DNA from: Obrimoposthia wandeli
Lineage: Eukaryota
DNA length: 64,000 bases
Assembly (NCBI GenBank): GCA_977020255.1
Contig: CDROCS010000817.1
Span: 434,001 to 498,000, forward strand
Direction of reading: 5' to 3'
Position 1 is the first letter of the stretch; each line of letters begins with the position of its first letter. The notes beneath the pieces were generated by a model, which saw nothing but the letters and a program-made list of their open reading frames with translations, had not been told where the DNA came from and searched no databases. The position numbers and the translations under genes were made by a program. Below, in pieces: positions 8,160-64,000 of the stretch.

Positions 8160-10030
8160 AAGAGTCTTAGCAAGTGAATGTAATTTTAAAATAAGAGTGT
8201 CGATAGTTTGATTGAATGCAAGTGTAATTTAGACTATAAGTAAATTAAAATAGAGTTTTCGTTGAATAAATTATAGTTAGATTCAATGCAAGTATGAATG
8301 CAAGTGAATGATAGTATGAATTTCAATACAAGTAAGTGTCTTAGCAAGTGAATGTAATTTTAAAAATAAGAGTGTCGATAGTTTGATTGAATGCAAGTGT
8401 AATTTAGACTATAAGTAAATTAAAATAGAGTTTACGTTGAATAAATTATAGTTAGACTGAATGCAAGTATGAATGCAAGTGAATGATAGTTTGAATTTCA
8501 ATACAAGTAAGTGTCTTAGCAAGTGAATGTAATTTTAAAAATAAGAGTGTCGATAGTTTGATTGAATGCAAGTGTAATTTAGACTATAAGTAAATTAAAA
8601 TAGAGTTTTCGTTGAATAAATTATAGTTAGATTGAATGCAAGTATGAATGCAAGTGATTGATAGTATGAATGTCAATACAAGTAAGTGTCTTAGCAAGTG
8701 AATGTAATTTAAAAATAAGAGTGTCGATAGTTAGATTGAATGCAAGTGTAATTTAGACTATAAGTAAATTAAAATAGAATTTTCGTTGAATAAATTATAG
8801 TTAGATTGAATGCGAGTATGAATGCAAGTGATTGTTAGTATGAATGTCAATACAAGTAAGTGTCTTAGCAAGAGAATGTAGTTTTAAAAATAAGAGTGTC
8901 GATAGTTTGATTGAATGCAAGTGTAATTTAGACTATAAGTAAATTAAAATAGAGTTTTCGTTGAATAAATTATAGTTAGATTGAATGCAAGTATGAATGC
9001 AAGTGAATGATAGTATGAATTTCAATACAAGTAAGTGTCTTAGCAAGTGAATGTAATTTTAAAAATAAGAGTGTCGATAGTTTGATTGAATGCAAGTGTA
9101 ATTTAGACTATAAGTAAATTAAAATAGAGTTTTCGTTGAATAAATTATAGTTAGATTGAATGCAAGTATGAATGCAAGTGAATGATAGTTTGAATTTTCA
9201 ATACAATTAAGTGTCTTAGCAAGTGAATGTAATTTAAAAATAAGAGTGTCGATAGTTAGATTGAATGCAAGTGTAATTTAGACTATAAGTAAATTAAAAT
9301 AGAATTTTCGTTGAATAAATTATAGTTAGATTGAATGCAAGTATGAATGCAAGTGAATGATAGTATGAATTTCAATACAAGTATGTGTCTTAGCAAGTGA
9401 ATGTAGTTTTAAAAATAAGAGTGTCGATAGTTTGATTGAATGCAAGTGTAATTTAGACTATAAGTAAATTAAAATAGAGTTTTCGTTGAATAAATTATAG
9501 TTAGATTGAATGCAAGTATGAATGCAAGTGATTGATAGTATGAATGTCAATACAAGTAAGTGTCTTAGCAAGAGAATGTAATTTAAAAATAAGAGTGTCG
9601 ATAGTTAGATTGAATGCAAGTGTAATTTAGACTATAAGTAAATTAAAATAGAATTTTCGTTGAATAAATTATAGTTAGATTGAATGCGAGTATGAATGCA
9701 TGTGATTGATAGTATGAATTTCAATACAAGTAAGTGTCTTAGCAAGTGAATGTAATTTAAAAATAAGAGTGTCGATAGTTTGATTGAATGCAAGTGTAAT
9801 TTAGACTATAAGTAAATTAAAATAGAGTTTTCGTTGAATAAATTATAGTTAGATTGAATGCAAGTATGAATGCAAGTGAATGATAGTATGAATTTCAATA
9901 CAAGTAAGTGTCTTAGCAAGTGAATGTAGTTTTAAAAATAAGAGTGTCGATAGTTTGATTGAATGCAAGTGTAATTTAGACTATAAGTAAATTAAAATAG
10001 AGTTTTCGTTGAATAAATTATAGTTAGATT
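8160..10030. repeat. 175-bp satellite-like tandem array, about 11 units (left arm)
   Basis: TAAATTAAAATAGAG recurs at 8241, 8416, 8591, 8765, 8940 and onward at 174-175-bp spacing. Confidence 0.93.
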
Positions 10031-11229
10031 GAATGTAAATGAATACAAGTATACATTCAAGTGAATGCAAATACGAGTAAGAGTTTCAGCAAGTAAATAT
10101 AAAACTATGAATGAGTGACAGTGAAAATAAGAGTGTCGATAGTTTGATTGAATGAGAGTGTAATTTAGACTAGAAATAAATTAAAATAGAGATTTAGTAT
10201 GAATAAAGTTATGTTAAGTTACAGTTAGATTAATAACAAGTAAGCAACTATAAGTAAGCAGTGATATTGAAGTATGTTAAAAATTAGAACGACTAAGTTA
10301 TGGCAAGATTAATAGAAAACAACACCAAATTTGATAGTATGAATGAAAATTAGTAAAATATTAATGTATTTGAATGTATTTGAAAGATAGTTTGAATAAA
10401 TTACAGTTAGATTGAATGCAAATGAATGCAAGTATGATTGAATGCAGGGTCAAGTACAAGTAAGAAAGAATACGCAATATGCAAGTACGAATGCCAATTA
10501 TGAATGAAAATTAGTAAATATAATAATGAATTTGAATAATTAAAATGTCTTATCTCGTTTGATAAAATTCCTTAATTGAAATATTTTAAAATAATTAGTT
10601 TAATTTAAATTCTTTATTTTTAAATAACTTGATTATACAATTATATTCGTAAATATAATTAAAATTATCATTATTCGTTTCTCTTTTTTAACTATTCGAA
10701 ACTGTTTTTATATATATACAAATTTAGTAAATTAACTCAACAACAATTTTTTTTTATTAATTACTTGATATTTTTGCCATTGTCTTATTAATATAATATG
10801 AATATTCAATTTATTTCTTCAAAAATTCATTTTATATGTTAAATAATATTCTTTATCACATTATTGTGATTTTTATCAAGTGATTTTAACCTTAAACTAT
10901 AAAAATATTTTAATTATAAAGTTAGTAGCTGTACCCCGCCCCCTGCATATAACATAAATTTCAAATATAAAGTACTATTAAGTTTATTATTTCGACATTG
11001 TGGTAAGTAATTTTGGTATTAATTGTTTTTAAACTAGATTAACTTCGTATAACCTCATTTTTTTTATCTTAAACTAAAATATATTTTAATATCCTTTTAT
11101 TATATTAATTTATTTTGCTCAAGTATTTTTAAACATTTCAATGTTATATAATAGTTTAATAAAAGTTAATCATTGAATACAAGAACACAAATTCTAATAA
11201 CTTAAAACGTATTAAAGTGAATAAATGCA

Positions 11230-12230
11230 TAAATATATTATGTTTACAAGTAAATTTATAGTAAACGACAGTAAACTATGAATTACTTTTTATGTAATGA
11301 AATATTACAGTATTAACTTACAATATATTAAATTGAAAATATGCAAATTATATTATGTTTACAAGTCAATTTATTGATCAAATCATTAAAATTATGATTA
11401 ATAAGTAAATTTCTTGAAGTTTTGGTTGTAAATTATATTAAAGTAAAAACTTACAACATTTTAAACTGAATATATACAACAACAAATAAATATTGTAGTT
11501 TACAAGTAAATTACTTGAAGTTTTTGTTGTAAAATTATATTAAAGTAATAACTTACAACATATAAATTGAAAATATACCAAAATAAATTATGTTTACAAG
11601 TCTATTTATTGTACAAAACATTAAACTTATGTTTAATAAGTAAACTACTTGAAGTTTTTTGTTGAAAATTATAATAAAGTAATAACTTACAACATATTAA
11701 AGTGAATATATGCATAAATATATTATGTTTACAAGTCAATTTATTGTAAACGATAGTAAACTATCAATTACTTTTTTATATAATGTAATATTATAGTAAT
11801 AACTTACAATATATTAAATTGAAAATATGCAAATTATATTATGTTTACAAGTCAATTTATTGATCAAATCATTAATATTATGATTAATAAGTAAACTACT
11901 TAAAGTTTTTGTTGAAAATTATATTAAAGTAATAACTTACAACATTTTAAACTGAATATATACAACAACAAATAAATATTGTAGTTTACAAGTAAATTAC
12001 TTGAAGTTTTTGTTGTAAATTATATTAAAGTAATAACTTACAACATATTAAATTGAAAATATATCAAAATAAATTATGTTTACAAGTCAATTTATTGTAC
12101 AAAACATTAAACTTATGTTTAATAAGTAAACTACTTGAAGTTTTTGTTGAAAATTATATTAAAGTAATAACTTACAACATTTTAAACTAAATATATACAA
12201 CAACAAATAAATATTGTAGTTTACAAGTAA
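11230..12230. repeat. Degenerate ~120-bp tandem repeat in the central spacer, with ~486-bp higher-order repeat
   Basis: TATTATGTTTACAAGTCAATTTATTG-like and AACTTACAACAT motifs recur; a longer block repeats at ~11349 and ~11835. Confidence 0.75.
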
Positions 12231-13249
12231 ATTTTCGAATGTCTAGTAAACAAAATTAAATAACTCGAAAAAACATTTACTATTCGAAATAATAAACTTA
12301 ATAGTACTTTATATTTGAAATTTATGTTATATGCAGTGGGCGGGGTACAGCTACTAACTTTATAATTAAAATATTTTTATAGTTTAAGGTTAAAATCACT
12401 TGATAAAAACCACAATAATGTGATAAAGAATATTATTTAACATATAAAATGAATTTTTGAAGAAATAAATTGAATATTCATATTATATTAATAAGACAAT
12501 GGCAAAAATATCAAGTAATTAAAAAAAATTGTTGTTGAGTTAATTTACTAAATTTGTATATATATATAAAAACAGTTTCGAATAGTTAAAAAGAGAAACG
12601 AATAATGATAATTTTAATTATATTTACGAATATAATTGTATAATCAAGTTATTTAAAAATAAAGAATTTAAATTAAACTAATTATTTTAAAATATTTCAA
12701 TTAAGGAATTTTATCAAACGAGATAAGACATTTTAATTATTCAAATTCATTATTATATTTACTAATTTTCATTCATAATTGGCATTCGTACTTGCATATT
12801 GCGTATTCTTTCTTACTTGTACTTGACCCTGCATTCAATCATACTTGCATTCATTTGCATTCAATCTAACTGTAATTTATTCAAACTATCTTTCAAATAC
12901 ATTCAAATATATTAATATTTTACTAATTTTCATTCATACTATCAAATTTGGTGTTGTTTTCTATTAATCTTGCCATAACTTAGTCGTTCTAATTTTTTAA
13001 CATACTTCAATATCACTGCTTCCTATAGTTGCTTACTTGTTATTAATCTAACTGTAACTTAACATAACTTTATTCATACTAAAACTCTATTTTAATTTAT
13101 TTCTAGTCTAAATTACACTCTCATTCAATCAAACTATCGACACTCTTATTTTCACTGTCACTCATTCATAGTTTTATATTTACTTGCTGAAACTCTTACT
13201 CGTATTTGCATTCACTTGAATGTATACTTGTATTCATTTACATTCAATC

Positions 13250-13900
13250 TAACTATAATTTATTCAACGAAAACTCTATTTTAATTTACTTATAGTCTAA
13301 ATTACACTTGCATTCAATCAAACTCTCGACACTCTTATTTTTTAAATTACATTCACTTGCTAAGACACTTACTTGTATTGAAATTCATACTAGCATTCAC
13401 TTGCATTCATACTTGCATTCAATCTAACTATAATTTATTCAACGAAAACTCTATTTTAATTTACTTATAGTCTAAATTACACTTGCATTCAATCAAACTA
13501 TCGACACTCTTATTTTTAAATTACATTCACTTGCTAAGACACTTACTTGTATTGAAATTCATACTATCAATCACTTGCATTCATACTCGCATTCAATCTA
13601 ACTATAATTTATTCAACGAAAACTCTATTTTAATTTACTTATAGTCTAAATTACACTTGCATTCAATCAAACTCTCGACACTCTTATTTTTAAAATTACA
13701 TTCACTTGCTAAGACACTTACTTGTATTGAAATTCATACTATCATTCACTTGCATTCATACTTGCATTCAATCTAACTATAATTTATTCAACGAAAACTC
13801 TATTTTAATTTACTTATAGTCTAAATTACACTTGCATTCAATCAAACTATCGACACTCTTATTTTAAAATTACATTCACTTGCTAAGACTCTTACTTGTA
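13250..13900. repeat. Inverted copy of the 175-bp array, about 4 units (right arm)
   Basis: Reverse complement of the 8160-10030 unit. Confidence 0.9.
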
Positions 13901-15292
13901 AATGACATTCATACTTGCATGCATAATTTTATTCATTTACATTCATTCTACCTCTCATTTATTCAAACTCTCATTCAAATATTCAAATAAATTAATATTT
14001 TTAATAATTTTCTATTAATTCCGTTGTAACTTAGTCGTTGAAACGAAAAGAATGTATAAAGAATGGACTTTCTTACTTTGTAAATGTTATTCACTTAAGT
14101 TTGAAGATGATATTATGAAATTACATAATAAATGTGTTTAATTTTGTATTATTCTCTGACTTCTTTCTTATTTTATTTTTTATTTTAATATATAATTGAA
14201 GTTATTTAAAGAAATTTTATCATAATTCTATAAATGTGTAAGCCTAGGAAAAACTTTGATCTAAATTTCACATAAAATAGTATGTGTGTGATTACGTAAT
14301 ACATTCATTAACTGATAAGAGTGAACTTTAGTTTAAATTTCACATAAATAGTGTATGTGTGTGTTAAAAACCACATTTCTTAACTGATAAGAGTGAACTT
14401 TATCCTAAATTTTCATTATGGACTATATCACAAAAAAGAAGGGTGGAGACTAAGCCACTTGATCCTTTGAATTAGTAGTTAGCCAAAAAGAAAGGTGGAG
14501 ACTAGACCACAAAAAGAAGGGTGGAGACTAGATCACAAAAAGAAGGGTGGAGACTAGATCACAAAAAGAAGGGTGGAGACTAGATCACAAAAAGAAGGGT
14601 GGAGACTAAGCCACTTGATCCTTTCATAGTGGTATATCACAAAAAGAAGGGTGGAGACTAAGCCACTTGACCCTTTCATAGTGGTATATCTCAAAAAGAA
14701 GGGTGGAGACTAAGCCACTTGACCCTTTAATCTATGGACGACCACAGTGGTATATCAAAGAAGGATGGAGTCTAAGCCACTTGACCCCCCCTATCCTTCC
14801 CCTCCCCTCCCCTCCCGCCTCCCCCTAAAGGGTGTGACACCCTTTAGGGGGGGGTCAAGTGGCTTAGACTCCATCCTTCTACCTACTTATGTGCTACGAA
14901 TGATAGTCTATCAATTTCAAATATGGCCTTAAAATCCTCCGACAATGTAGTATCAATAGGATAATTTTGCATAGACCCAACGAGCTATTCTTTTTTAATA
15001 TCTGTAATATCTTGATTTGATATTGAATCAAACCATGTTGACGTTGATACCATGAACTTCTCTGGTGTTGCAAGAGAAGTAGAACTATTGCTTCAGGCTC
15101 TTTTTCTGAATTCATTTGAAATTTCTTTAAATTTTCAGCCAGTCGAGTTGAACTTGCTGCTGTTAGTTCCTTTATGCAAGATTTTAAACAAATATTATAT
15201 TCTTTCAATTAAAAAAATCGTTTTTTCGTTTTTTATTGTTGTTTTTTTCATCACTAATCCACCATGAAGTAATTTTATTTATAATAATTTAC

Positions 15293-28789: not shown

Positions 28790-28793
28790 GTAT

Positions 28794-30657
28794 TGTTGGG
28801 GTTTCTATACGAAACTTGGTACAGATCCTCTTATGTGCGGAGGGCCCCAACGTGAGTTCGATTAGAAGCAGGTCTTAAAGTTGGTCGTGGCCTACTTAGT
28901 GTTATGGTTGCCTAATCTCTTGTACTATCTGAAGGTATTTGATTTGATGTCTCTTATTCTGAAGGGTGCAAAACAACTTGTTCTAATGTAGGAAATTGTT
29001 TATTTGTAATTCACGTAACTAACACAACAATACGTTTATGTACGTATTTCTAAAAAGTATGATAAAATTCCTAGGACTTCTGTAAGTCTCTACAAGAAGT
29101 GGGGATGAACCACGTATCGATTTTACGTTCAGGTGATTAAGCTTTTAGGTTTATTCTTCTTACTTAGGTTGGTTAATCTATAACGCAACTCTCTTAAATT
29201 TCTTCGCTCCTACTTCTTATATCTAGATAAAGTTTCTTGATTCCTTAACTCTATCTGCTGTGTGTTTGACCCCGAATTGTCCACTGTGAACAATGGGTCT
29301 CCTAAAAACCTAATTGTCAAAGATGACAATGAAAACTTACTCCGAATTGTCAACTACGGACAATGAATGAACCGAATTGTCAGCTAGGGACAATGAGTCT
29401 TACCGAATTGTCAACTAGGGACAATGAGTATTTGTCCGAATTGTCAACTAGGGACAATGAATGAACCGAATTGTCAGCTAGGGACAATGAGTCTTACGGA
29501 AAAAAGTCTGGTATAATTCCTAATTGTCGCTGGGGACAATGAATAAAATAGATGATCTTAATTGCCAACTAGGGACAATGATTAGGTTAATGAGTCAGCA
29601 ATCCTAATTGCCAGCTAGGGGCAATGAATGTGTTTACTAGGTTAAAATTTAGAATTACCAACAAGGGGTAATGAAGGTATCCTAATTGCCAACTAGGGGC
29701 AATGAATGCTCTAGTCGGTTGGCTTACCAATACGCTGCGACTAGTGCGGCTTCCGGTGCAGGATCCGTATGGAGCGCTTGCGAGTCTGGCGGAACCGTCC
29801 TCAAAGTCAACTGTAGCTTTCGACTTCTTCCGCGCTTTTCACTTCTTTCGAACCTTTCAATCTGGATACCGACTCGACTTTCAACACTGATTCGATATTC
29901 AAATATTGGTTCAACTTCAATTTCGGATTCGATATTTCAATATTGGTTCAACTTCAATTACGGATTCGATATTACAATTTGGTTCAACTTCAATTACGGA
30001 TTCGATATTACAATTTGGTTCAACTTCAATTACGGATTCGATATTACAATTTGGTTCAACTTCAATTACGGATTCGATATTACAATTTGGTTCAACTTTT
30101 CACACTGATCTAAATAATTTTAACTCTACCTATTCCCAATCACCACTTACCGATTCGTGGTCGAGGGGATTGTCTTCTGTCTAATTGCTTCTTCTTTTTT
30201 CCAGTCGACTCTGTAGTTGATTCCGTATTTGTGTTTTCTGTTTTGGCGATCTGCCTTATATAGAGGCAAGTCTGTCAATCAAATCGACAGCTGCTTAATG
30301 GTCGCGGGAATTCACTTGAATTCTTCTGGAATATATCTGAAATTTATTAACCTTATTGCACTTAAAATGTGCTTACCTTTTCCTGATTGACGTCTCTTAA
30401 TTGACGTTTCTAATTGATCCTTTTTTCTGTAATTAATTCTAAATTGTTCGCTTTTTGGGTTAATTAATTCAACTTATATACATCTCACATTATACACGAC
30501 CTTCGTGGTCCTCCTAATTTTTACCCTAACTTCCACTAATTTCAATTCTAAAACTAAAATTAATATTTAATTTAATTTTCAACCTTGCTTTCAAGGATTT
30601 TTATTTTAGTATTTAATCGACTAAAATATTTAAATTTCTTAATTCTCAAACCTAACA
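28794..30657 (-). repeat. 3' LTR of element A (1864 bp)
   Basis: Direct repeat of 37571-39435; by eye only two substitutions and one 1-bp indel; contains a degenerate ~30-bp array (29270-29700) and a 36-bp array (~29905-30100). Confidence 0.96.
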
Positions 30658-30876: not shown

Positions 30877-33834
30877 CTACATGAGTAAACAAGGATTAGG
30901 AAGGAAAGAAGGGAGGAAAGGATTCAACGTTGTCAATTGTCGTAAGTTAGGTCTATTGTAATTGTCGGCTGGTTCCGACTGGCCAGGTAACGTTATCCAT
31001 AGATTATTCGTCATCTGATATTCAGGTGCCATTATATTAGAGCAGCTGATTTCTTTAGTTGGAGTGTCTTTTGGAAGTAACATTCTCGTGATTGGTTCAA
31101 CAAAAAGATCTTTTAAATTATACGTTACTGCCAATTCACTCGTACATCGATCTGTTTTCCTCAACTGTACCTCTACTTTATTACACTTGTAAGTATACAA
31201 TACTTCTCCCATGGTTTTAGCAAATACTCCTTCATCCAAGGGTAATAATGGTGCTACCATGTCTGGATTCGTAATAGCTAATGCTAACTTTGTTCTTACG
31301 ATCTCTTTGTTTAGCTGGCAATCTCTTTCGATCATCATCCGATATAACTGTTCCATTTGCATCAATCCTTTATGATAATAGAAATCAATTTTATTATTAA
31401 AATACGTGTGTAGCTGCATATCTTTAGGTTTTAGCTTGGTTTCTGCCAATGCTATTGCTTCTTTGGACAAAACTATTCCTGGATAGTTTGTAGTACTAAC
31501 AGTCATTCCGCATCGCGCTTTGTTTTTCTTTTTAATAAATATCAATCCTTCTTCTATTGATGTTGCCATTAATAGTGTAGGTGTTTTTGTCATTGGAATT
31601 GGTCTTGTTTCATTGAGCAATCCCTTTCCAACTTTATTATACAGGAATCCTTCTCCATCTTTATTATACAGGAATCCTTTTATTTTTTTAAAGCTAATAT
31701 CTTTCAAAAATACTAAAGAGCATTGCTTCGGATTTATGTTATACACAATTGTGGATTCGCCTGTGAAACAAGATGTATCTGTCATTTTACATTCTGGATA
31801 CTTCATCATTAGTTGTGTCTTTTTATCAAAATTGGCGGTCCATGTTTTTAATTCGATTTTGTAAGTTACATCCATTACTAACTCGGCTACTTTGGTTCCA
31901 CGCACGTTTTTTGTTTCTCCGTCACAAGATCCATCGGCCCATCGTTGTCCGACTCTCGTGACTGTTTCGTATCGTCTCACTCCAATTTTTACATCAGGTT
32001 TGTAATTCTTGTCTACCTCTATCGTTCCCGTTCGAAATGCGTCTTCGCAATCTCTCGGCAAAACCTTATGTGCCTTGTACGGTGTGGTAGGTGTGATTTC
32101 TGACATAAAACTTCTATGGCCACAATAGAATTCGTGATAACTTGAATGGATTGAACATTCTTTCACTTCTACTTGTACTTTATCAACATCCTGATACACA
32201 AAGTAGTTTTCAACACCTTTAACTTCTAGTTTTGACGGTTGTGACTCTGGACAGTCTTCGCTGTCAAGCAGTGAATACTTTTGTCCCATCTTTGGTATGC
32301 TACAGTCGTATGCTATCAATCCTGATGCCTGTTGCATTCCCATAAACATTACTAACATCATCATCATCATTGTTGTGGACATATTTGGTTGATTGTTTCT
32401 CTCTTTCGGACGGTATTGTTTATTTTCCTTTTGACGATTCTCATGACATTGTTCGTCATCGTCTTCATTCATTTCCACAATGGTTTTAGCGTAGTCACTT
32501 AATTTTGCCCAACCTCCGTTTTCGTCAATTCGTCTCTGTAATACATTCTCTATCAAGTACATCGCTTCATTTATTCCTTGTTTGACTTCGTGAGGTTGGC
32601 TCGTTCGTTCCGTCAATTGGAAACATAGATATGTGATCGCTGTAATTAACTTTTTATTTGTAGTCTGGTTTCCACATAGTCTCGCTAAAACTTCACCGTC
32701 ATAAAATCTATCTATCGATGCATGGTATACATGATTCGCAGTCATTCTCTTTACTGCAGACATCTGTGATCTGACTGCTTTAGTCAAATTGTCTGTTATA
32801 TCGGTTGTTTCATCTCTGTACATTTTAAACAACTTCGGCTTCACTTGCCTGAGAATTCCCGTAAGTATATCTTTACTACTTGGAGTTTCCGAATTCATAT
32901 CACCTCTGATATCTTCATTCCTCTCTGCACTATACTGCTCTAATGACGCTGCTAACTGTCCAATACTTAGATGTCTCTCTTCATCAGTTTGTGGTGCAGT
33001 TAGAACATTTCGTAATATACTTTCGCCTTTTCTAGGTCTTCCAGGTCCTCTTCGAAAATACTGATACTCAGCTTGATTCTCTCCTGGATCATACGTTTCA
33101 CCATTATACTGTATATCTTGACTTGGTCCTTCTTCATGGCCAATCTCTTCATTTTGTCGCATCATTTGCTCTGCTTGTCTATCTTTGTATGCAGCATGCC
33201 AAATTGGTGAGTCCAAATCTACAATCTCGGAGACTTCGTCTTCTCCTACTAGTTGGGTTACGGTTTCGTTTTGTCGCACTTGGTTAGCTGTATCCGTGAC
33301 TTCATCTTGTCTGATTGGAATTATATCTGGTTCTGGTGGCACCTCGACCACTGGAGTTGTCAACTCATTTTCTAAATTCATGTCTTGTAATTCAGCTACG
33401 TACGGTTCTGGTGTGGATGTCTTGTTCCAAGCTTCAGCTACATCATTATCTCCGCTTTCGCTTGAACTGTCTAAAATTTCTATAGGCGTTTTTATCATTT
33501 CTAACGCAGAATTCAATATCTCGGTTAATCCTTCATTATCTACTAACTCTTGACGTCCTACAGTGATGACATCAATTTTTTCCTCTAATTCATTTCCTAT
33601 CGGATATCCACACTCGACTGGTACGTCCTCATCATCTAGTGATCTCCCTTTATAATGGAACAACATATTCATTCCATCAATTTCGAGTTTCTCGGCCAAT
33701 TTTTTTCGAATCGTTTTCATTGTTTGATACACGTTAGGTTTTTCATGTATTATCTGTCCGGAAATTAATCGAAGTGAAATTTTCATCGTTCCTTTTTGGT
33801 TTGATTTCTGTACATAACGACCATAACCTTTCAA
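30877..33834 (-). CDS. Multidomain ORF: ubiquitin-like domain, acidic linker, AT-hook, Bcl-2-like domain, internal signal sequence, truncated class III fusion glycoprotein
   Basis: 985 open codons, first ATG at 33786. Ubl MKISLRLISGQ..LFHYKGRSLDDED; RRGPGRPRK; LQRRIDENGGWAKLSDY; MMMMMLVMFMGMQQASG then LIAYDC..FYCGHRS..DGSCDG..MGEVLYTYKC..LFVEPITRML, a Cys and motif pattern like chuvirus-type G proteins. Confidence 0.88.
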   Translation of the reverse strand: MKGYGRYVQKSNQKGTMKISLRLISGQIIHEKPNVYQTMKTIRKKLAEKLEIDGMNMLFHYKGRSLDDEDVPVECGYPIGNELEEKIDVITVGRQELVDNEGLTEILNSALEMIKTPIEILDSSSESGDNDVAEAWNKTSTPEPYVAELQDMNLENELTTPVVEVPPEPDIIPIRQDEVTDTANQVRQNETVTQLVGEDEVSEIVDLDSPIWHAAYKDRQAEQMMRQNEEIGHEEGPSQDIQYNGETYDPGENQAEYQYFRRGPGRPRKGESILRNVLTAPQTDEERHLSIGQLAASLEQYSAERNEDIRGDMNSETPSSKDILTGILRQVKPKLFKMYRDETTDITDNLTKAVRSQMSAVKRMTANHVYHASIDRFYDGEVLARLCGNQTTNKKLITAITYLCFQLTERTSQPHEVKQGINEAMYLIENVLQRRIDENGGWAKLSDYAKTIVEMNEDDDEQCHENRQKENKQYRPKERNNQPNMSTTMMMMMLVMFMGMQQASGLIAYDCSIPKMGQKYSLLDSEDCPESQPSKLEVKGVENYFVYQDVDKVQVEVKECSIHSSYHEFYCGHRSFMSEITPTTPYKAHKVLPRDCEDAFRTGTIEVDKNYKPDVKIGVRRYETVTRVGQRWADGSCDGETKNVRGTKVAELVMDVTYKIELKTWTANFDKKTQLMMKYPECKMTDTSCFTGESTIVYNINPKQCSLVFLKDISFKKIKGFLYNKDGEGFLYNKVGKGLLNETRPIPMTKTPTLLMATSIEEGLIFIKKKNKARCGMTVSTTNYPGIVLSKEAIALAETKLKPKDMQLHTYFNNKIDFYYHKGLMQMEQLYRMMIERDCQLNKEIVRTKLALAITNPDMVAPLLPLDEGVFAKTMGEVLYTYKCNKVEVQLRKTDRCTSELAVTYNLKDLFVEPITRMLLPKDTPTKEISCSNIMAPEYQMTNNLWITLPGQSEPADNYNRPNLRQLTTLNPFLPSFLPNPCLLM

Positions 33835-33849
33835 TAATCCTCGGGGTAC

Positions 33850-35919
33850 TTATTTGTAACCCAAGTTATCATGGCTATGTTTAACCAATTCTGCTCGCAC
33901 TTCTTCCAATCGGTGCACTTTAATTGTTTGCAATTTGGCCAAAACTTCTGGAGCTTCACTCGTTTCATCTAACGGTTGATTCAACGTTTCCTTAGCTTCA
34001 CTAATTATCTTTTTTACATTTTCCATACTCATAGCATTTCTCGCTGCTTCTACATGATCAGTCATAGGTTGTGCGTTACACGTTTTCTCTATTGGTGTCT
34101 CATACGCTTCTAATATTCTATTCATTAAATCGTTCATCTCTTCTCTCGAGTGTAGACTTTTCTCTTGTTTCGACAACGTAGATGAATTCGCCATCTTTGT
34201 ATGTGGTGAATCTTTAATTATTCCCAACATTCGTTCAAATTTACTATCACTATCTTCAAAATCTATTTCGCGTCGAAGCTCGGTTTCGCGATTCCTATCA
34301 CTGTCATCGCTTACATAACTAAAATTTCCTTTCGGTTTCGGCGAACTCTCACGACTACTTGTCTTGTCGACATTATTATTATTATATCTACCAGAATTAT
34401 TATATCTCTCAGCTCCTTGCTGTCCTACGTAATTATTGTATCTCTCAGCTCCTTGCTGTCTGTCTGCATAGTTATTGTATCTACCTGGTGACTGTTGTCT
34501 ATCTGTATACTGATTATTCAGTCTCCATGGCTGTGGAGTATATCCACCACCTCTATTCCATGGCGGAGGTGAATTATATCCTCTATAATTATTTCCAAAA
34601 TTATTATTACCGAAATTATTATTTCCAAATCTGTTAGTTCCGAACTCTTTGTTTCTCGTACAATCTCTCGAATAGTGACCCATTTGTTTACACGTGTAAC
34701 ACATTATTCTCCCTCGAATATCTATCTTATTTTGTTCATCTTCGAACTGCACTCGACGACTATTCTGTCTATTATCATAGCGCCCTTTAAAATCATTTCT
34801 TCGGAAATTCGATTCAAAACCGCTTCCTCGATTATTGAATCTTCCGTCGCTATTTCCTGTATTATTTCCAAATCGAGAGTCACTTCGCTCTCCTCTGTTG
34901 GTGTTATAATTCCTATCGTCTCCTCTCCAAGGTTGGCGATTTCCTGAATTATCTCTATTAAATCTATTCCTGGAATCATCTCTATTTCTACTCCACGAAT
35001 CATTATTATTTCTACCTCTTGAATCATCTCGATTCCTGTTCCAAGACTCACTATTATTTCTACCTCTGGAATCATCTCGATTCCTACTTCGGAAATTATC
35101 TCTATTTCCGTTACTGGATTCATCTACTTTTTCAAACTTATTTTGTCCATAATTTCGATTCTGAAAATTACTCGGTTCTGTTTTATTCACAAAGACCTTT
35201 GTCTTATCGTCGTCAGCTGCAGTCATTGCGTAAATTGCCAATGCTGCATTATTTTTTATATTTTTCTCAATCTCTCTCGCCTTTCGTACGGCGTTATCAA
35301 AATCATTTGTATCTGATACTGCTAATAACACTTTAATATCCTTTTTCAATCCTCCTCTAAATATATCTAACAAAACCTCTGCCATTTCATTTTGGTTTCG
35401 GTCATTTTCCGCTACTTGTGCTTCTTGAGGTACAGGAATACCGTCCTGATTTCTCATTATTCTTCTTGGGTACGCTCTTGCGGCCAAGGTTCTCAAAACA
35501 TACGCGTATTCATTCACGCCTTCATCATGTTTCTGTTTCCGTTCTCTCATGAGTCGCTTATTTACTTTGGCTAAGTCTCCTAATACCAATTTTCCAATAA
35601 AAGCATTTTCTAACGTTGGCCAATCTATGCGTTCTGCTTCTGTCAAATGTTTATACACTTCAAGTGCTAATCCGGTTAAATGTGCCTGTACTCGGACACA
35701 TTTTTCTTTATCGTTCCATCCTTGAACATCCGCACAACTCGAATATTCTGCGAGGAAGTCACAAATACTTTCCTCATCTCCTTTAAACTTTGTAATCTGC
35801 AATGATCCTGAAAAATTGGGTCTCAACGTCGCATTTAAAGCTTGTGCCAACTGCTCGGCATTCATTTCACCTACATTATTTCCTGCATTAATATCTGGTG
35901 GAGCTCCTTGGTGAGCCAT
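33850..35919 (-). CDS. gag: Ty3/Gypsy-type Gag, 689 aa from the first ATG
   Basis: KFKGDEESICDFLAEYSSCADVQGWNDKEK capsid-like region, RKQKHDEGVNEY, RDDSRGRN repeats, CCHC knuckle CYTCKQMGHYSRDC at 34660-34701. Confidence 0.92.
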   Translation of the reverse strand: MAHQGAPPDINAGNNVGEMNAEQLAQALNATLRPNFSGSLQITKFKGDEESICDFLAEYSSCADVQGWNDKEKCVRVQAHLTGLALEVYKHLTEAERIDWPTLENAFIGKLVLGDLAKVNKRLMRERKQKHDEGVNEYAYVLRTLAARAYPRRIMRNQDGIPVPQEAQVAENDRNQNEMAEVLLDIFRGGLKKDIKVLLAVSDTNDFDNAVRKAREIEKNIKNNAALAIYAMTAADDDKTKVFVNKTEPSNFQNRNYGQNKFEKVDESSNGNRDNFRSRNRDDSRGRNNSESWNRNRDDSRGRNNNDSWSRNRDDSRNRFNRDNSGNRQPWRGDDRNYNTNRGERSDSRFGNNTGNSDGRFNNRGSGFESNFRRNDFKGRYDNRQNSRRVQFEDEQNKIDIRGRIMCYTCKQMGHYSRDCTRNKEFGTNRFGNNNFGNNNFGNNYRGYNSPPPWNRGGGYTPQPWRLNNQYTDRQQSPGRYNNYADRQQGAERYNNYVGQQGAERYNNSGRYNNNNVDKTSSRESSPKPKGNFSYVSDDSDRNRETELRREIDFEDSDSKFERMLGIIKDSPHTKMANSSTLSKQEKSLHSREEMNDLMNRILEAYETPIEKTCNAQPMTDHVEAARNAMSMENVKKIISEAKETLNQPLDETSEAPEVLAKLQTIKVHRLEEVRAELVKHSHDNLGYK

Positions 35920-36454
35920 ATCTTCAACTATATCGTCTTCAACTATTCCTTCAATATTATTTACTTGAACTTCTTCAATCACTACTGGATTGGCAATTTC
36001 AATTTCTTCTGGGTTTTGAACTTCAAGATTATCAATTTCTTCTGGGTTTATGTCACCAAATAACTCAGTCAGCTCAAAACTGTCGGTTGAAACTGCTGAT
36101 TGATCAACGTCTCTTTCTGATACGTTTTCTTCGACTCTAGTCTTTTCTGTTACTTTGTTATCTGTTTGGGGAACCTGTTCAATTCGGTCAACTTTATTAT
36201 TATTTGTCTCTTCCTTGGGAATCTGGCTTTGTCTTCTAGTATTAAACGTGGGTCCTTTTCTATTATCCGTTGTCTTATCAATTATGTATTCGTTTACGAT
36301 ATCAATTTACTTATTATTTTTTATCTTATTTCACAATTCTTATTTTACGATTTTTTATCTCTTTAATTAGTTCGAGGACAGAGTCTCCCGACTTAACTTA
36401 TTCAATTAATTACTTCGAGTATCAATCCACTCGATTCTCACTTATCAAATTTAC

Positions 36455-37200
36455 TGACTCGAGGAACAAATCCACTCGACTTCTCAAAAACTTATCGAAT
36501 TCTTACTTCGAGGAACAAATCTACCCGATTTCTCAAAAACTTATCAAATTCTTAACTTCGAGGAACAAATCTACCCGATTTCTCAAAAACTTATCAAATT
36601 CTTAACTTCGAGGAACAAATCTACCCGATTTCTCAAAAACTTATTAAATTCTTAACTTCGAGGAACAAATCTACCCGATTTCTCAAAAACTTATCAAATT
36701 CTTAACTTCGAGGAACAAATCTACCCGATTTCTCAACACTTATCAAATTCTTAACTTCGAGGAACAAATCTACTCGATTTCTCAAAACCTATCAAATTCT
36801 TAACTTCGAGGAACAAATCTACTCGATTTCTCAAAACTTATCAAATTCTTAACTTCGAGGAACAAATCTACCCGATTTCTCAAAAACTTATCAAATTCTT
36901 AACTTCGAGGAACAAATCTACTCGATTTCTCAAAACTTATCAAATTCTTAACTTCGAGGAACAAATCTACCCGATTTCTCAAAAACTTATCAAATTCTTA
37001 ACTTCGAGGAACAAATCTACTCGATTTCTCAAAACTTATCAAATTCTTAACTTCGAGGAACAAATCTACCCGATTTCTCAAAAACTTATCAAATTCTTAA
37101 CTTCGAGGAACAAATCTACTCGATTTCTCAAAACTTATCAAATTCTTAACTTCGAGGAACAAATCTACTCGATTTCTCAACACTTATCAAATTCTTATCT
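36455..37200. repeat. 49-50-bp tandem array (about 15 units) in the 5' leader of element A
   Basis: AACTTCGAGGAACAAATCTACCCGATTTCTCAAAAACTTATCAAATTCTT at 36554, 36604, 36654 and onward. Confidence 0.95.
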
Positions 37201-37515
37201 CAATTTACTTATATCTTCTTCTGAAACTTATTCTAAATTTGCTTATATCTTCTTCTGAAACTTATTCTCAATTGTCTATATTCTTCTGCTGAAACTTATT
37301 CTCAATTTATCTGAAACTTATTCTCAATTTATCTGAAACTTATTCTTAATATCTGAAACTTATTCTTAATATCTGAAACTTATTCTTAATATCTGAAACT
37401 TATTCTTAATATCTGTACTTATTTTATTTACCTGAAACTTATTCTCAATTATCTGAAACTTATCCGAACTTATTCTATTTACCTGAAACTTATTCTCAAT
37501 TATCTGAAACTTATC
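37200..37515. repeat. ~20-bp tandem array in the leader next to the PBS
   Basis: CTGAAACTTATTCTCAATTTAT-like units; equivalent array at ~59875-60110 in copy B. Confidence 0.9.
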
Positions 37516-37543: not shown

Positions 37544-37562
37544 ATCCTCACTCGGGGCACCA
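37544..37562 (-). other. Primer-binding site complementary to the 3' end of elongator tRNA-Met
   Basis: TGGTGCCCCGAGTGAGGAT, 8 nt after the LTR end; the eukaryotic elongator tRNA-Met 3' end (..ATCCTCACACGGGGCACCA) matches at all but one position. Confidence 0.85.
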
Positions 37563-37570
37563 CTTTAATA

Positions 37571-39435
37571 TGTTGGGGTTTCTATACGAAACTTGGTACA
37601 GATCCTCTTATGTGCGGAGGGCCCCAACGTGAGTTCGATTAGAAGCAGGTCTTAAAGTTGGTCGTGGCCTACTTAGTGTTATGGTTGCCTAATCTCTTGT
37701 ACTATCTGAAGGTATTTGATTTGATGTCTCTTATTCTGAAGGGTGCAAAACAACTTGTTCTAATGTAGGAAATTGTTTATTTGTAATTCACGTAACTAAC
37801 ACAACAATACGTTTATGTACGTATTTCTAAAAAGTATGATAAAATTCCTAGGACTTCTGTAAGTCTCTACAAGAAGTGGGGATGAACCACGTATCGATTT
37901 TACGTTCAGGTGATTAAGCTTTTAGGTTTATTCTTCTTACTTAGGTTGGTTAATCTATAACGCAACTCTCTTAAATTTCTTCGCTCCTACTTCTTATATC
38001 TAGATAAAGTTTCTTGATTCCTTAACTCTATCTGCTGTGTGTTTGACCCCGAATTGTCCACTGTGAACAATGGGTCTCCTAAAAACCTAATTGTCAAAGA
38101 TGACAATGAAAACTTACTCCGAATTGTCAACTACGGACAATGAATGAACCGAATTGTCAGCTAGGGACAATGAGTCTTACCGAATTGTCAACTAAGGACA
38201 ATGAGTATTTGTCCGAATTGTCAACTAGGGACAATGAATGAACCGAATTGTCAGCTAGGGACAATGAGTCTTACGGGAAAAAAGTCTGGTATAATTCCTA
38301 ATTGTCGCTGGGGACAATGAATAAAATAGATGATCTTAATTGCCAACTAGGGACAATGATTAGGTTAATGAGTCAGCAATCCTAATTGCCAGCTAGGGGC
38401 AATGAATGTGTTTACTAGGTTAAAATTTAGAATTACCAACAAGGGGTAATGAAGGTATCCTAATTGCCAACTAGGGGCAATGAATGCTCTAGTCGGTTGG
38501 CTTACCAATACGCTGCGACTAGTGCGGCTTCCGATGCAGGATCCGTATGGAGCGCTTGCGAGTCTGGCGGAACCGTCCTCAAAGTCAACTGTAGCTTTCG
38601 ACTTCTTCCGCGCTTTTCACTTCTTTCGAACCTTTCAATCTGGATACCGACTCGACTTTCAACACTGATTCGATATTCAAATATTGGTTCAACTTCAATT
38701 TCGGATTCGATATTTCAATATTGGTTCAACTTCAATTACGGATTCGATATTACAATTTGGTTCAACTTCAATTACGGATTCGATATTACAATTTGGTTCA
38801 ACTTCAATTACGGATTCGATATTACAATTTGGTTCAACTTCAATTACGGATTCGATATTACAATTTGGTTCAACTTTTCACACTGATCTAAATAATTTTA
38901 ACTCTACCTATTCCCAATCACCACTTACCGATTCGTGGTCGAGGGGATTGTCTTCTGTCTAATTGCTTCTTCTTTTTTCCAGTCGACTCTGTAGTTGATT
39001 CCGTATTTGTGTTTTCTGTTTTGGCGATCTGCCTTATATAGAGGCAAGTCTGTCAATCAAATCGACAGCTGCTTAATGGTCGCGGGAATTCACTTGAATT
39101 CTTCTGGAATATATCTGAAATTTATTAACCTTATTGCACTTAAAATGTGCTTACCTTTTCCTGATTGACGTCTCTTAATTGACGTTTCTAATTGATCCTT
39201 TTTTCTGTAATTAATTCTAAATTGTTCGCTTTTTGGGTTAATTAATTCAACTTATATACATCTCACATTATACACGACCTTCGTGGTCCTCCTAATTTTT
39301 ACCCTAACTTCCACTAATTTCAATTCTAAAACTAAAATTAATATTTAATTTAATTTTCAACCTTGCTTTCAAGGATTTTTATTTTAGTATTTAATCGACT
39401 AAAATATTTAAATTTCTTAATTCTCAAACCTAACA
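37571..39435 (-). repeat. 5' LTR of element A (1865 bp)
   Basis: Sense strand starts TGTTAGG and ends CCCCAACA, followed by the PBS. Confidence 0.96.
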
Positions 39436-39461
39436 GTATCTTGTTACTTTTTTAATACTTG

Positions 39462-57232: not shown

Positions 57233-57969
57233 AGGATTCCTAACTCGTATATTTTGATGTTTTTTCCTTTTGAAATTCTTTCTAGATAATAAAAATTTCT
57301 CAGAAGAAGATTCATTCTAAAATAAAGAGACTTTTTAAAAAATAATGTTTGTAAAAAAATACATATAAGATACTGTTAGGTTTAGGAATTAAAAAATTAA
57401 AATAATAAATTGATTTTATAGTAAAATGAAAATCCTTGAAAGCAAGGTTAGAATTAAATAAATTTTAAAATCAAAATTAACATTATTTGAAGTTTAAATA
57501 AGATTAAATGTTAGAAGACCACGAAGGTCGTGTATGATGCGTTGTGTATATAAGTTAATTTTAAAGGAAACAAAAGTGCAAACTAATAAGCAAAAAATAA
57601 TCAGAAAAAGAAATTAATTAAGAAAGGAAAAGAAGTGATTAATAAAGAAAAACCACGTCAGCAGAAAGAAGATTGACAGCAAGAAACGTCAGCAAGAGTA
57701 AGCACATTTTTAGTGCAATTGATTTACCTAAATTGAAATTTAGCAGCTGTCGCCAATTCCTAAATTGCTCAGGAAATTGTTTGCTGAGTGACAACAACAC
57801 AATCCATTAAGCAGCTGTTGCCAGACTATATAAGTCTTTAGGAAAACCTATTACACACACACAGAAAAGCAATTTTAGCCGAGACGAGGATTGAGTCAGC
57901 GGAAAAAACTCTGGTGAGCGCTCCTAATTTTGAGCCTACATTAATTGCTAGAATTACAGAATTGGAAAC

Positions 57970-58450
57970 AAAAGCCACTATCCTCCAGTTCAATTCTCGA
58001 CCGAATAAGCCGTCGCAGCAAAAGCCACTATACTCCAGTTCAATTCTCGACCGAATAAGCCGTCGCAGCAAAAGCCACTATACTCCAGTTCAATTCTCGA
58101 CCGAATAAGCCGTCGCAGCAAAAGCCACTATCCCCCAGTTCAATTCTCGACCGAATAAGCCGTCGCAGCAAAAGCCACTATACTCCAGTTCAATTCTCGA
58201 CCGAATAAGCCGTCGCAGCAAAAGCCACTATACTCCAGTTCAATTCTCGACCGAATAAGCCGTCGCAGCAAAAGCCACTATCCCCCAGTTCAATTCTCGA
58301 CCGAATAAGCCGTCGCAGCAAAAGCCACTATACTCCAGTTCAATTCTCGACCGAATAAGCCGTCGCAGCAAAAGCCACTATCCCCCAGTTCAATTCTCGA
58401 CCGAATAAGCCGTCGCAGCAAAAGCCACTATCCTCCAGTTCAATTCTCGA
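57970..58450. repeat. 50-bp tandem array (about 10 units) in LTR-B
   Basis: AAAGCCACTATACTCCAGTTCAATTCTCGACCGAATAAGCCGTCGCAGCA at exact 50-bp spacing. Confidence 0.95.
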
Positions 58451-58519
58451 CCAAATAAACAGACGCTGCAACTTTGGAATTGAGATAGGTGAGAGGAGAG
58501 TAATAGGCTAGGGTTTTAA

Positions 58520-59300
58520 AATAATTTCACATTTTCCAATTGTAAAAGGAGTTTTAACCTCCATTGATTTGATTTTCATATTTCCAATTTTAAAAGGAGT
58601 TTTAACCTCCATTGATTTGATTTTCATATTTCCCCATTTGTAAAAGGAGTTTTAACCTCCATTGATTTGATTTTCATATTTCCCAATTTTAAAAGGAGTT
58701 TTAACCTCCATTGATTTGATTTTCATATTTCCAATTTTAAAAGGAGTTTTAACCTCCATTGATTTGATTTTCATATTTCCCAATTGTAAAAGGAGTTTTA
58801 ACCTCCATTGATTTGATTTTCATATTTCCAATTTTAAAAGGAGTTTTAACCTCCATTGATTTGATTTTCATATTTCCCCATTTGTAAAAGGAGTTTTAAC
58901 CTCCATTGATTTGATTTTCATATTTCCCAATTGTAAAAGGAGTTTTAACCTCCATTGATTTGATTTTCATATTTCCAATTTTAAAAGGAGTTTTAACCTC
59001 CATTGATTTGATTTTCATATTTCCCAATTTTAAAAGGAGTTTTAATCTCCATTGATTTGATTTTCATATTTCCCAATTTTAAAAGGAGTTTTAACCTCCA
59101 TTGATTTGATTTTCATATTTCCCAATTTTAAAAGGAGTTTTAACCTCCATTGATTTGATTTTCATATTTCCAATTTTAAAAGGAGTTTTAACCTCCATTG
59201 ATTTGATTTTCATATTTCCCAATTTTAAAAGGAGTTTTAACCTCCATTGATTTGATTTTCATATTTCCCAAATTTAAAAGGAGTTTTTGACCTCCATTGA
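58520..59300. repeat. 48-50-bp tandem array (about 16 units) in LTR-B
   Basis: AAAAGGAGTTTTAACCTCCATTGATTTGATTTTCATATTTCCCAATTTT repeated. Confidence 0.95.
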
Positions 59301-59829
59301 TCTGCAATTTATTAAAGTTTGTCCAACTTTAAGGAAGCTTTTACATCACCACCTTTATTGACATAAAATTAAAGGTTTAACCTCAAAAGTTAAAGCCGAC
59401 AGTAGAGTTAATTTGATTTGAAAAATCTATAACGTGAGCTTATTCTCGAGTCACAGGAACAACTCTAAAATCTCGATCACCCTTAGCGTAAAATCGATAC
59501 GTGGTTCATCCCCACTTGTGTAGAGACTTACAGAAGTCTTAGGAATTTTTACCATACTTTTTAGAAGATACGTACATAAACGTATTGTTGTGTTTTAGTC
59601 TAGTGTGTTACCAATAAACGATTTCCTACATTAGAAAACGTTGTTTTAAACCCTTCAGAATAAGAGACGTCAAACAAACACCTTCAGATAAGAAATAGAG
59701 ATAGGCAACCATAGCACTAAGTAGGCCACGACCAACTTTAAGACCTGCTTCTATTCGAACTCACGTTGGGGCCCTCCGCACACAAGAGGATCTATACAAG
59801 TCTCGTATAGAAACCCCAACATATTAAAG

Positions 59830-59848: not shown

Positions 59849-60658
59849 AGCTCGTCGGACACAGCGAATTCACATATAATAAGTTTCAGATAAATTGAGA
59901 ATAAGTTTCAGATAAATAGAATAAGTTTCAGATAAATTGAGAATAAGTTTCAGATAAATAGAATAAGTTTCAGATAAATTGAGAATAAGTTTCAGACAAA
60001 TTGAGAATAAGTTTCAGCAGAAGAATATAGACAATTGAGAATAAGTTTCAGAAGAAGATATAAGCAAATTTAGAATAAGTTTCAGAAGAAAATATAAGTA
60101 AATTGAGATAAGAATTTGAATAAGTTGAGAAATCGAGTAGATTTGTTCCTCGAAGTTAAGAATTTGATAAAGTTGAGAATCGAGTGGATTGATACTCGAA
60201 GTAATTAATTGAATAGGTTAAGTCGGGAGACGTGTCCTCGAACTAATTAAAGAGATAAGAAATCGTAAAATAAGAATTGTGAAATAAGGTAAAATAATAA
60301 ATAAATTGATATCGTAAACGAATACATAATTGATAAGCCAACGGATAATAGAAAAGGACCCGCGTATAATACTAGAAGACAAAGTCAGATTCCCCAGGAA
60401 GAGATAAATAATAATTAAGTTAACCGAATTGAACAGGTTCCCCAAACAGATAACAAAGTAACAGAAAAGACTAGAGTCGAAGAAAACGTATCAGAAAGAG
60501 ACGTTGATCAATCAGCGGTTTCAACCGACAGTTTTAATTTGACTGAATTATTTGGTGACATAAACCCAGAAGAATTTTAAATTGCCAATCCAGTAGTGAT
60601 TGAGGAAGTTCAATTGAATAATCTTGAAGAAATAGTTGAAGAGGATATAGCTGAAAAT

Positions 60659-63600
60659 ATGGCTCACCCAGGAGCTCAAGCAGATAATAATGCAGGAAAT
60701 AATGTAGGTGACATGAATGCCGAACAGTTGGCACAAGCCCTAAATGCGACGTTGAGACCCAACTTTTCAGGATCATTGCAGATTACAAAGTTTAAAGGAG
60801 ATGAGGAAAGTATTTGTGACTTCCTCGCAGAATATTCGAGTTGTGCAGATGTTCAAGGATGGAACGATAAAGAAAAATGTGTCCGAGTACAGGCACACTT
60901 AACCGGATTAGCACTTGAAGTGTATAAACATTTGACAGAAGCAGAACGTTTAGACTGGCCAACGTTGGAAAATGTTTTTATTGGAAAATTGGTATTAGGA
61001 GACTTAGCCAAAGTAAATAAGCGACTCATGAGAGAACGGAAACAGAAACATGATGAAGGCGTGAATGAATACGCGTATGTTTTGAGAACCTTGGCCGCAA
61101 GAGCGTACCCAAGAAGAATAATAAGAACTCCAGAAGGTATTCCTGTAGCTCAAGAAGCACAAGTAGCGGAAAATGACCGGAACCAAAATGAAATGGCAAA
61201 GGTTTTGTTAGATATATTTAGAGGAGGACTGAAAAAAGATATTAAAGTATTATTGGCTCTATCGGATACAAATGATTTTGATAACGCCGTGCGAAAGGCG
61301 AGAGAGATTGAGAAAAATATAAAAAATAACGCAGCATTGGCATTTTACGCAATGACTGCAGGTGACGACGATAAGACAAAGGTATTCGTGAATAAAACAG
61401 AACCGAGTAATTTTCAGAACCGAAATTATGGACAAAATAAGTTTGAAAAAGTAGATGAATCCAGTAACGGAAACAGAGATAATTTCCGAAGTAGGAATCG
61501 AGATGATTCCAGAGGTAGAAATAATAGTGAGTCTTGGAACAGGAATCGAGGTGATTCAAGAGGTAGAAATAGTAATGATTCGTGGAATAGAAATAGAGAT
61601 GATTCCAGGAATAGATTTAATAGAGATAATTCAGGAAATCGCCAACCTTGGAGAGGAGACGATAGGAATTATAACGCAAACAGAGGAGAGTGAAGTGACT
61701 CTCGATTTGGGAATAATACAGGAAGTAGTGACGGAAGATTCAATAATCGAGGAAGCGGTTTTGAATCGAATTTCCGAAGAAATGATTTTAGAGGACGCTA
61801 TGATAATAGACAGAATAGTCGTCGAGTACAGTTCGAAGATGAACAAAATACGATAGATATTCGAGGGAGAATAATGTGTTACACGTGTAAACAAATGGGT
61901 CACTATTCGAGAGATTGTACGAGAAGTAAAGAGTTCGGAACTAACAGATTTGGAAATAATAATTTCGGTAATAATAATTTTGGAAATAATTATAGAGGAT
62001 ATAATTCACCCCCGCCATGGAATAGAGGTGGTGGATATACTCCACAGCCACGGAGACCGAATAATCAGTATACAGATAGACAACAGTCACCAGGTAGATA
62101 CAATAACTATGCAGACAGACAGCAAGGAGCTGAGAGATACAATAATTACGTAGGACAGCAAGGAGCTGAGAGATATAATAATTCCGGTAGATATAATAAT
62201 AATAATGTTGACAAGACAAATAGTCGCGAGAGTTCGCCGAAACCGAAAGGAAATTTTAGTTATGTAAACGATGACAGCGATAGGAATCGCGAGACCGAAC
62301 TTCGACGCGAAATAGATTTTGAAGATAGTGATAGTAAATTTGAACGAATGTTGGGAATACTTAAAGATTCACCACATACAAAGATGGCGAATTCATCTAC
62401 GTTGTCGAAATAAGAAAAAAGTCTACACTCGAGAGAAGAGATGAATGATTTAATGAATCAAATACTAGAAGCGTATGAGACACCAATAGAGAAAACGTGT
62501 AACGCACAACCTATGACCGATCATGTAGAAGCAGCAAGAAATGCTACGAGTATGGAAAATGTAAAAAAGATAATTAGTGAAGCTAAGGAGACGTTGAATC
62601 AACCGTTAGACGAAACGAGTGAAGCTCCAGAAGTTTTGGCCAAATTACAAACAATTAAAGTGCACAGATTGGAAGAAGTGCGAGCAGAATTGGTTAAACA
62701 TAGTCATGATAACTTGGGTTACAAAGAAGTACCACGAGGATTATTGAAAGGTTATGGTCGCTACGTACAGAGATCAAACCAAAAAGGAACGATGAAAATT
62801 TCACTTCGATTAATTTCCGGACAGATAATACATGAAAAACTTAACGTGTATCAGACAATGAAAACTATTCGAAAAAAGTTGGCCGAGAAACTTGAAATTG
62901 ATGGAATGAATATGTTGTTCCATTATAAAGGGAGATCACTAGATGATGAGGACGTACCAGTCGAGTGTGGATATCCGATAGGAAATGAATTAGAGGAAAA
63001 AATTGATGTCATCACTGTAGGACGACAAGAGTTAGTAGATAATGAAGGATTAACGGAGATATTGAACTCTGCGTTAGAAATGATAAAAACGCCTATAGAA
63101 ATTTTAGACAGTTCAAGCGAAAGCGGAGATAATGATGTAGCTGAAGCTTGGAACAAGACATCCACACCAGAACCGTACGTAGCTGAATTACAAGACATGA
63201 ATTTAGAAAATGAGTTGACAACTCCAGTGGTCGAGGTACCACCAGAACCAGATATAATTCAAATCAGACAAGATGAAGTCGCGGATACAGCTAACCAAGC
63301 GAGACAAACCGAAAACGTAACCCAACTAGTAGGAGAAGACGAAATCTCCGAAATTGTAGATTTAGATTCACCAATTTGGCATGCTGCATACAAAGATAGA
63401 CAAGCAGAGCAGATGATGCGACAAAATGAAGAGATTGGCCATGAAGAAGGACCAAGTCAAGAGATACAGTATAATGGTGAACCGTATGATCCAGGAGAGA
63501 ATCAAACTGAGTATCAGTATTTTCGAAGAGGACCTGGAAGACCTAGAAAGGATGGAAGTATATTACGAAATGTTTTAACTGCACCACAAACTGATGAGGA

Positions 63601-64000
63601 GAGACATCTAAGCATTGGACAGTTAGCAGCGTCATTAGAGCAGTATAGTGCAGAGAGGAATGAAGATATCAGAGGTGATATGAATTCAGAAGCTCCAAGT
63701 AGTAAAGATATACTTACGGGAATTCTCAGGCAAGTGAAGCCGAAGTTGTTCAAAATGTACAGAGATGAAACAACCGATATAACAGACAATTTGACTAAAG
63801 CAGTTAGATCACAAATGTCTGCAGTAAAGAGAATGACTGCGAATCATGTATACCATGCATCAATAGATAGATTTTACGACGGTGAAGTTTTAGCGAGATT
63901 ATGTGGAAACCAGACTACAAATAAAAAGTTAATTACAGCAATCACATATCTATGTTTCCAATTGACGGAACGAACGAGCCAACCTCACGAAGTCAAACAA
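60659..64000 (+). pseudogene. gag: Gag-Ubl-AT-hook-Bcl-2-like polyprotein of element B with two premature stops; incomplete at window end
   Basis: Collinear with element A; TGA at 61691 (CGA in A) and TAA at 62411 (CAA in A); GAA at 62726 where A has its gag stop; frame then open to 64000. Confidence 0.9.

Follow-up and report, generated by a model that had tools for sequence, protein, structure and literature searches.

The window, a stretch of 64,000 nucleotides from Obrimoposthia wandeli, holds two copies of one LTR retrotransposon, and the first of them (copy A, minus strand) raises the question of what a TAA codon does in the middle of its long reading frame. The frame extends from 36306 to 30877 and is broken once, by the TAA at 33852-33850. 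This sole in-frame stop separates open stretches of 818 and 990 codons, the second of which continues in the same frame into ORF2. An interpretation of the letters without database searches (the sequence-only reading) had offered a private nonsense mutation in A or, alternatively, a stop that in one subfamily works as Gag terminator or readthrough site. Since the stop is no commoner than at comparable codons, it is most likely a disabling mutation and not a translation switch. We assign a probability of about 0.88 to the view that one copy of an abundant single-frame Ty3/gypsy element here carries a nonsense change that is ordinary and without function.

One reading frame in copies A and B

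Copy B is inverted relative to A, starts near 57374 and carries the sense codon GAA at 62726-62728, as quoted in the sequence-only reading. Its stops at 61691-61693 and 62411-62413 were confirmed, and copy A reads Arg (CGA) and Gln (CAA) at these places; a third stop at 60578-60580 had been overlooked. From this reciprocal pattern of stops it follows that gag and ORF2 form a single frame, as had been proposed. The copies are 96% alike, with 134 differences in 3,439 ungapped bases; at the codon level, 72 differences are synonymous and 56 non-synonymous (stops counted). A sequencing error in the sense codon of B can be dismissed because the same 29-mer is present at 3,826 places in the assembly. 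In 25 cleaner copies, obtained by dropping four indel-rich ones, pN/pS was 0.19 and 0.10 in the part ahead of the site, 0.14 and 0.20 in the part that follows, with similar values in stop carriers. On both sides of the site this fits one constrained frame, as expected.

Several further repeats were observed around these copies. Outside the window, copy B is split by an insert of ~14.2 kb (G000:C817:505903-520071, loci L087 and L088), within which lies another gypsy element, with gag, env, protease and RT in one frame of 1,693 aa of its own (pol DNA 64-66% identity). A solo LTR of the family, with a 4-bp duplication, is located at 4164-6752 (plus strand). Similarity among the three family LTRs (solo, A and B) is confined to their ends, ~190-250 nt on the 5′ side (72-77%) and 340-380 nt on the 3′ side (87-93%); no match longer than 100 nt was found between their middles, though the coding DNA of A and B is so similar. 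A palindrome of ~6.6 kb at 7700-14350, with arms 99-100% complementary, consists partly of a 175-bp satellite.

Anatomy of copy A and its deletion

Copy A is a 10.6-kb LTR element, the features of which are collected in Table 1 together with those of copy B.

Table 1. Coordinates of the features of copies A and B within the window.
Feature	Position	Strand	Evidence or remark
Copy A, target-site duplication, 4 bp	39436..39439 (5′ side); same bases at 28790-28793	-	
Copy A, 5′ LTR, 1,865 nt, TG...CA	37571..39435	-	99.84% alike to 3′ LTR (2 mismatches, 1 gap)
Copy A, primer-binding site, 8 nt past LTR	37544..37562	-	complementary to host tRNA-Met(CAT) 3′ end
Copy A, 49-50-bp tandem repeats in 5′ leader	36388..37278	-	
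Copy A, 129 open ATG-free codons upstream of first ATG	35920..36306	-	weak constraint, pN/pS 0.67
Copy A, Gag part, 689 codons: capsid-like region and one CCHC knuckle (~34701-34657)	33853..35919	-	PF00098 E 8e-6; PF03732 E 0.002 (under curated cut-off)
Copy A, TAA, codon 690 from first ATG	33850..33852	-	most probably a background nonsense change
Copy A, ubiquitin-like domain (weak match), ~19 codons past stop	33607..33795	-	PF00240 E 0.008 (under cut-off); ubiquitin variants E 0.012
Copy A, possible Bcl-2-like domain (weak)	32509..32697	-	PF00452 E 0.058, best match, far under cut-off
Copy A, Env: Monjiviricetes-type fusion glycoprotein, ends before membrane anchor	30984..32310	-	PF24664 E 2e-61
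Copy A, deletion junction, env joined to 3′ untranslated region, 9-10 nt overlap	30984..30993	-	~12.4-12.7 kb lost
Copy A, 3′ LTR	28794..30657	-	99.84% alike to 5′ LTR
Copy B, 5′ LTR; only ends resemble LTR of A	57374..59821	+	primer-binding site at 59830
Copy B, coding region, leaves window	60291..64000	+	stops 60578, 61691, 62411; sense codon 62726

From the near identity of its LTRs we conclude that copy A is young. The pattern of the tRNA-Met(CAT) 3′ end occurs at 55 places in the genome, and ARAGORN predicted seven tRNA-Met genes in one of two loci scanned. Tandem arrays of tRNA-Met(CAT) type were observed at G000:C2252:1-11857 (period of ~284 bp) and C2837:586194-598328, and these arrays are the likely source of the primer. 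Before the 3′ LTR (30700-30658, minus strand) no clear polypurine tract could be recognized by eye, the region containing a G-run, a T-run and a C-run. In the LTR of A, a donor-like GTAAGT motif (near 38929) and a TATA-like box (near 39041) were also recognized by eye. Of 39 other copies, 11 keep the frame open over more than 800 codons upstream of the site, and their first ATG is always in the same place; the ATG-free codons ahead of it could reflect a non-AUG start or a spliced leader.

Behind the stop, the Bcl-2-like candidate remains weak. A single-sequence fold model reached a pLDDT of 41, which is uninformative, and PDB sequence matches for the region were noise. A search for homologues of 33849-32350 gave none at near or longer lengths and one marginal match of 21 residues among representatives. 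An Atlas match of the Bcl-2-like region to DUF6532 was rejected for its low recognition score.

The end of the frame of A is a product of a deletion. Of 40 other copies, 37 track A up to 30981-30987 and then enter sequence absent from A; the remaining three diverge earlier. The final bases of A correspond to sequence that in full copies lies 12.4-12.7 kb further on, in the 3′ untranslated region. The 30-mer across the junction has one occurrence in the genome with up to one mismatch allowed. The env anchor and all of pol are lost from copy A: a hydrophobic stretch at codons 1740-1775 of another copy, taken as the anchor, has no counterpart in A, and the last ~35 codons of A's frame derive from the 3′ untranslated region. 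The ORF of 1,680 aa (35919-30877), presented in the sequence-only reading as the consensus, is therefore A's own truncation, because the deletion joins env to the 3′ untranslated region; the arithmetic holds for copy A alone.

Copy A contains 16 codons found in none of 35 other copies, in comparison to ~3 predicted from the LTR divergence, a prediction with a wide error. Accordingly, the stop may predate the insertion, and A would then have been mobilised in trans. Copy A probably represents a recent dead-end, non-autonomous insertion: either the transcript behind it was defective beforehand and was copied by enzymes of other family members, or pol was lost in the course of that reverse transcription. 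Its transcription, if any, would yield at most the Gag part of 689 codons.

It is quite unlikely that the TAA is a consensus error of the assembly and not the base of the animal. Error-rich contigs do exist, as 4 of 29 sampled copies sit in contigs that give them 17 to 169 frameshifting indels each, and a single-base call in a family of thousands of copies may be mis-polished. The region of A, however, is clean, with no frameshift across 1,643 codons and LTRs that differ at 3 of 1,865 places, and the same stop is found in ten other copies at background rate. Among the pieces listed from contigs of four sequencing runs, compared at 95% and 100% likeness, none crossed 33852 with A's letters; rare variants drop out of contigs, the individual may differ, and this check is weakened by A's letter at 33874, which itself is rare (0 of 40 other copies).

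Frequency, carriers and context of the stop

The codon was tabulated over the genome assembly (G000, 1.35 Gb) by counting exact 29-mers that differ only in its first letter. The stop occurred 11 times, the sense form of copy B 3,826 times and the two remaining first letters 12 and 0 times, which gives a stop frequency of 11/3,849 or 0.286%. More than 99% of the copies thus read through the codon, and a stop in most copies, which would have spoken against a continuous frame, was not encountered. For comparison, three control codons of the same codon type and flanking bases were picked from five candidates for their conserved flanks. The stop was present in 4 of 3,920 matches at 33948 (0.10%), in 12 of 4,196 at 32169 in env (0.29%) and in 25 of 5,088 at 35640 in the capsid region (0.49%), the highest of the controls. 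Pooled, the controls amount to 0.311%, and no enrichment at the site over these three codons was found (Fisher P = 1.0). All these counts are lower bounds because exact matching misses copies with any further change in the 29-mer. Indirectly, 5.2-7.5 stop carriers were expected from the single-copy changes of the sampled copies, compared to the 11 observed; this slight excess corresponds to a Poisson P of 0.05 (for 6.2) or 0.14 (for 7.5). The direct control codons are the fairer yardstick.

The carriers were compared with other copies in a sample comprising the ten other stop copies, the continuation of copy B and 29 sense copies, which were hand-picked, mostly off contig ends, from the first 100 sense matches in contig order. 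A tree of 28 sense and 11 stop copies, for which the site was masked and the error-rich locus L078 left out, revealed no subfamily of stop carriers. The 11 stop copies correspond to 11 changes on this tree, and shuffled labels need 9.9 on average. Stop copies differ by 3.2% among themselves and by 3.0% from sense copies, the nearest neighbour of copy A (1.3%) is a sense copy, and the stop is found on both common downstream haplotypes. On a first tree, in which the comparators were the 29 most A-like copies and B, five stop copies had grouped with B. This grouping was rejected as a sampling artefact because it was lost once the comparators came in contig order. Of the two explanations offered at the outset, the nonsense mutation in A is consequently retained, though not as a strictly private one, as 11 copies carry it independently.

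Decay is also common elsewhere in the frame. Among the 29 copies with a sense codon at the site, 26 have other stops or frameshifts within the same 1,643 codons. In the sense copies, 19,260 codons observed ahead of the site included 20 stops and 26,785 beyond it included 25; L078 contributed 21 of these 45. Apart from the site, 3 of 11 stop copies and 3 of 29 sense copies are open over the 1,643 codons (Fisher P 0.32).

Besides the slight excess over the indirect estimate and the share of otherwise open copies among the carriers, a further point speaks against mere decay: the stop is plausibly placed, after the Gag part, just before the ubiquitin-like domain and with AA preceding it. Copies with the stop might be tolerated or even favoured as suppliers of free Gag in a family without another evident way to make more Gag than Pol. 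Defective copies that stop after Gag, the young and pol-less A included, would then act as Gag-only helpers and provide the surplus capsid protein that other elements obtain by frameshifting or readthrough. The boundary position of the stop fits such a role, as does the youth of A together with the apparent age of most of its rare changes, which points to recent packaging of its transcript or that of its parent. Furthermore, neither a 2A-like motif nor a family-wide frameshift was seen. Nevertheless, we regard this supply of Gag as very unlikely, both for the stop itself and for the helper role of A and its like. The stop is not enriched over the controls and is commoner in the capsid region, where it cannot give useful Gag; the carriers form no clade, and the deletion of A is single-copy, meaning that A has not spread. 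An in-frame, slippery-like heptamer was noted at 34327.

The surroundings of the TAA were also considered with regard to programmed readthrough in a subfamily, of the kind known from Tj1/Tosmo and murine leukaemia virus. In-frame stops after gag are known from Ty3/gypsy elements: in Tj1, Tcry1 and Tosmo1-3 of fission yeasts, a conserved TGA with a strictly conserved 8-bp context stands directly before pol (10.1101/2022.12.06.519325). According to the same source, C, CT or CTAG after TGA makes the stop permissive, and AA just before a stop favours readthrough in yeast. Copy A shares with these elements the in-frame stop after gag and the preceding AA, its context being AAA-TAA-G, and this upstream AA is the sole feature fitting a leaky context. 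In contrast to them, it has TAA followed by G, in 0.29% of the copies and far from pol, the first protease-like domain following ~1,230 codons past the stop. In the context of tobacco mosaic virus (TMV), G after the stop abolished readthrough (PMC2754532). No stabilising 3′ RNA structure was found in the 100 nt past the TAA, which fold no better than shuffles (z +0.40, pseudoknots left out of the model), and sense copies have identical bases downstream. With a control-level frequency, no subfamily of carriers and no 3′ structure, the functional terminator or readthrough site is not supported, and programmed readthrough in particular is extremely unlikely.

The frame of the family and its relatives

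Full copies of the family measure ~23.9 kb and have a frame of 5,357-5,360 codons, a length derived from the coordinates of three copies; no copy of the family was seen open end to end. The order of domains is Gag, ubiquitin-like, probably Bcl-2-like, fusion glycoprotein, protease-like, BIR, RING, protease, RT, RNase H, integrase and two phosphatases. Two overlapping natural open frames, each read within a stretch of one copy, cover large parts of it. One of 2,414 aa in locus L061 crosses the site and contains the knuckle, env, the protease-like domain, BIR and the start of RING; the other, of 2,087 aa in L093, contains RING, protease, RT, RNase H, integrase and the first phosphatase, with a second phosphatase-like domain after it. 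BIR (PF00653, E 3e-12) and RING (PF13920, E 4e-10) are flanked by two aspartic-protease-like domains, both with D[ST]G (L061 aa 1922-2011, L093 aa 260-348). Behind the integrase lie two dual-specificity phosphatase domains together with several predicted membrane segments (L081 4758-7607, L095 3682-7995, L093 6158-9445). On the pol side no family-wide frameshift was detected, and the breaks lie at different places in each copy: three of six compared copies have one near position 4,400 of L093, which L093 itself and the other three lack, and one at 6,157 is private to L093.

With TG...CA LTRs, a target-site duplication, a tRNA primer-binding site, the pol order PR-RT-RNase H-integrase and an RT nearest to Ty3, the family is a Ty3/gypsy LTR retrotransposon. 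It is young and comprises roughly 4,000-5,000 copies. We infer that it makes one polyprotein, which is probably cut by its own proteases and in which env would be threaded through the membrane internally.

Yeast Ty3, in which gag and pol are joined by a frameshift, is not known to carry env or cargo domains. Among solved structures, its Gag-Pol (PDB 7q5b, 4ol8) is nearest to the part of a family copy that comprises RT, RNase H and integrase (E 1e-128), and the order of these domains is the same. In layout, the family resembles the giant gypsy-like Burro/GYPSM1 LTR elements known from planarians, whose single ORF measures 4,873 and 5,140 aa and in which Gag, Ubi2/SUMO-like, BCL2-like and BIR domains are described and env stands in frame between gag and pol (PMC6431247). 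Shared features are the single very long ORF (~5,360 codons here), a CCHC Gag, a mononegavirus-type env that stands in frame between gag and pol, the BIR and RING domains, and thousands of copies. Candidate counterparts of the ubiquitin/SUMO-like and BCL2-like motifs are weak here, with Pfam E 0.008 and 0.058, under the cut-offs. Further sources on Burro are a 2026 study of the BIR-RING region (Burro1 B-IAP), cited in PMC13465017, and PMC11410931, which mentions the size of Burro. In contrast to Burro, the element measures ~24 kb and not >30 kb, one knuckle was detected compared to two or three, and MATH/TRAF, ankyrin and dUTPase gave no Pfam match at E 0.01 in the family frame. The two dual-specificity phosphatases after integrase and the second protease-like domain are absent from section 7 of PMC6431247; the phosphatases may be included in other Burro lists. 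As far as these sources go, the layout with Gag, env and pol in a single frame and with IAP cargo is largely published for Burro elements.

The outcome is mainly negative: the stop most probably reflects decay and not recoding, and the ORF of 1,680 aa is a side effect of the deletion in one copy. The stop does not explain how Gag and Pol are balanced in a frame of 5,360 codons with an internal env. The family itself, Burro-like, young, present in ~4,000-5,000 copies and equipped with phosphatase and IAP cargo, is of moderate interest.
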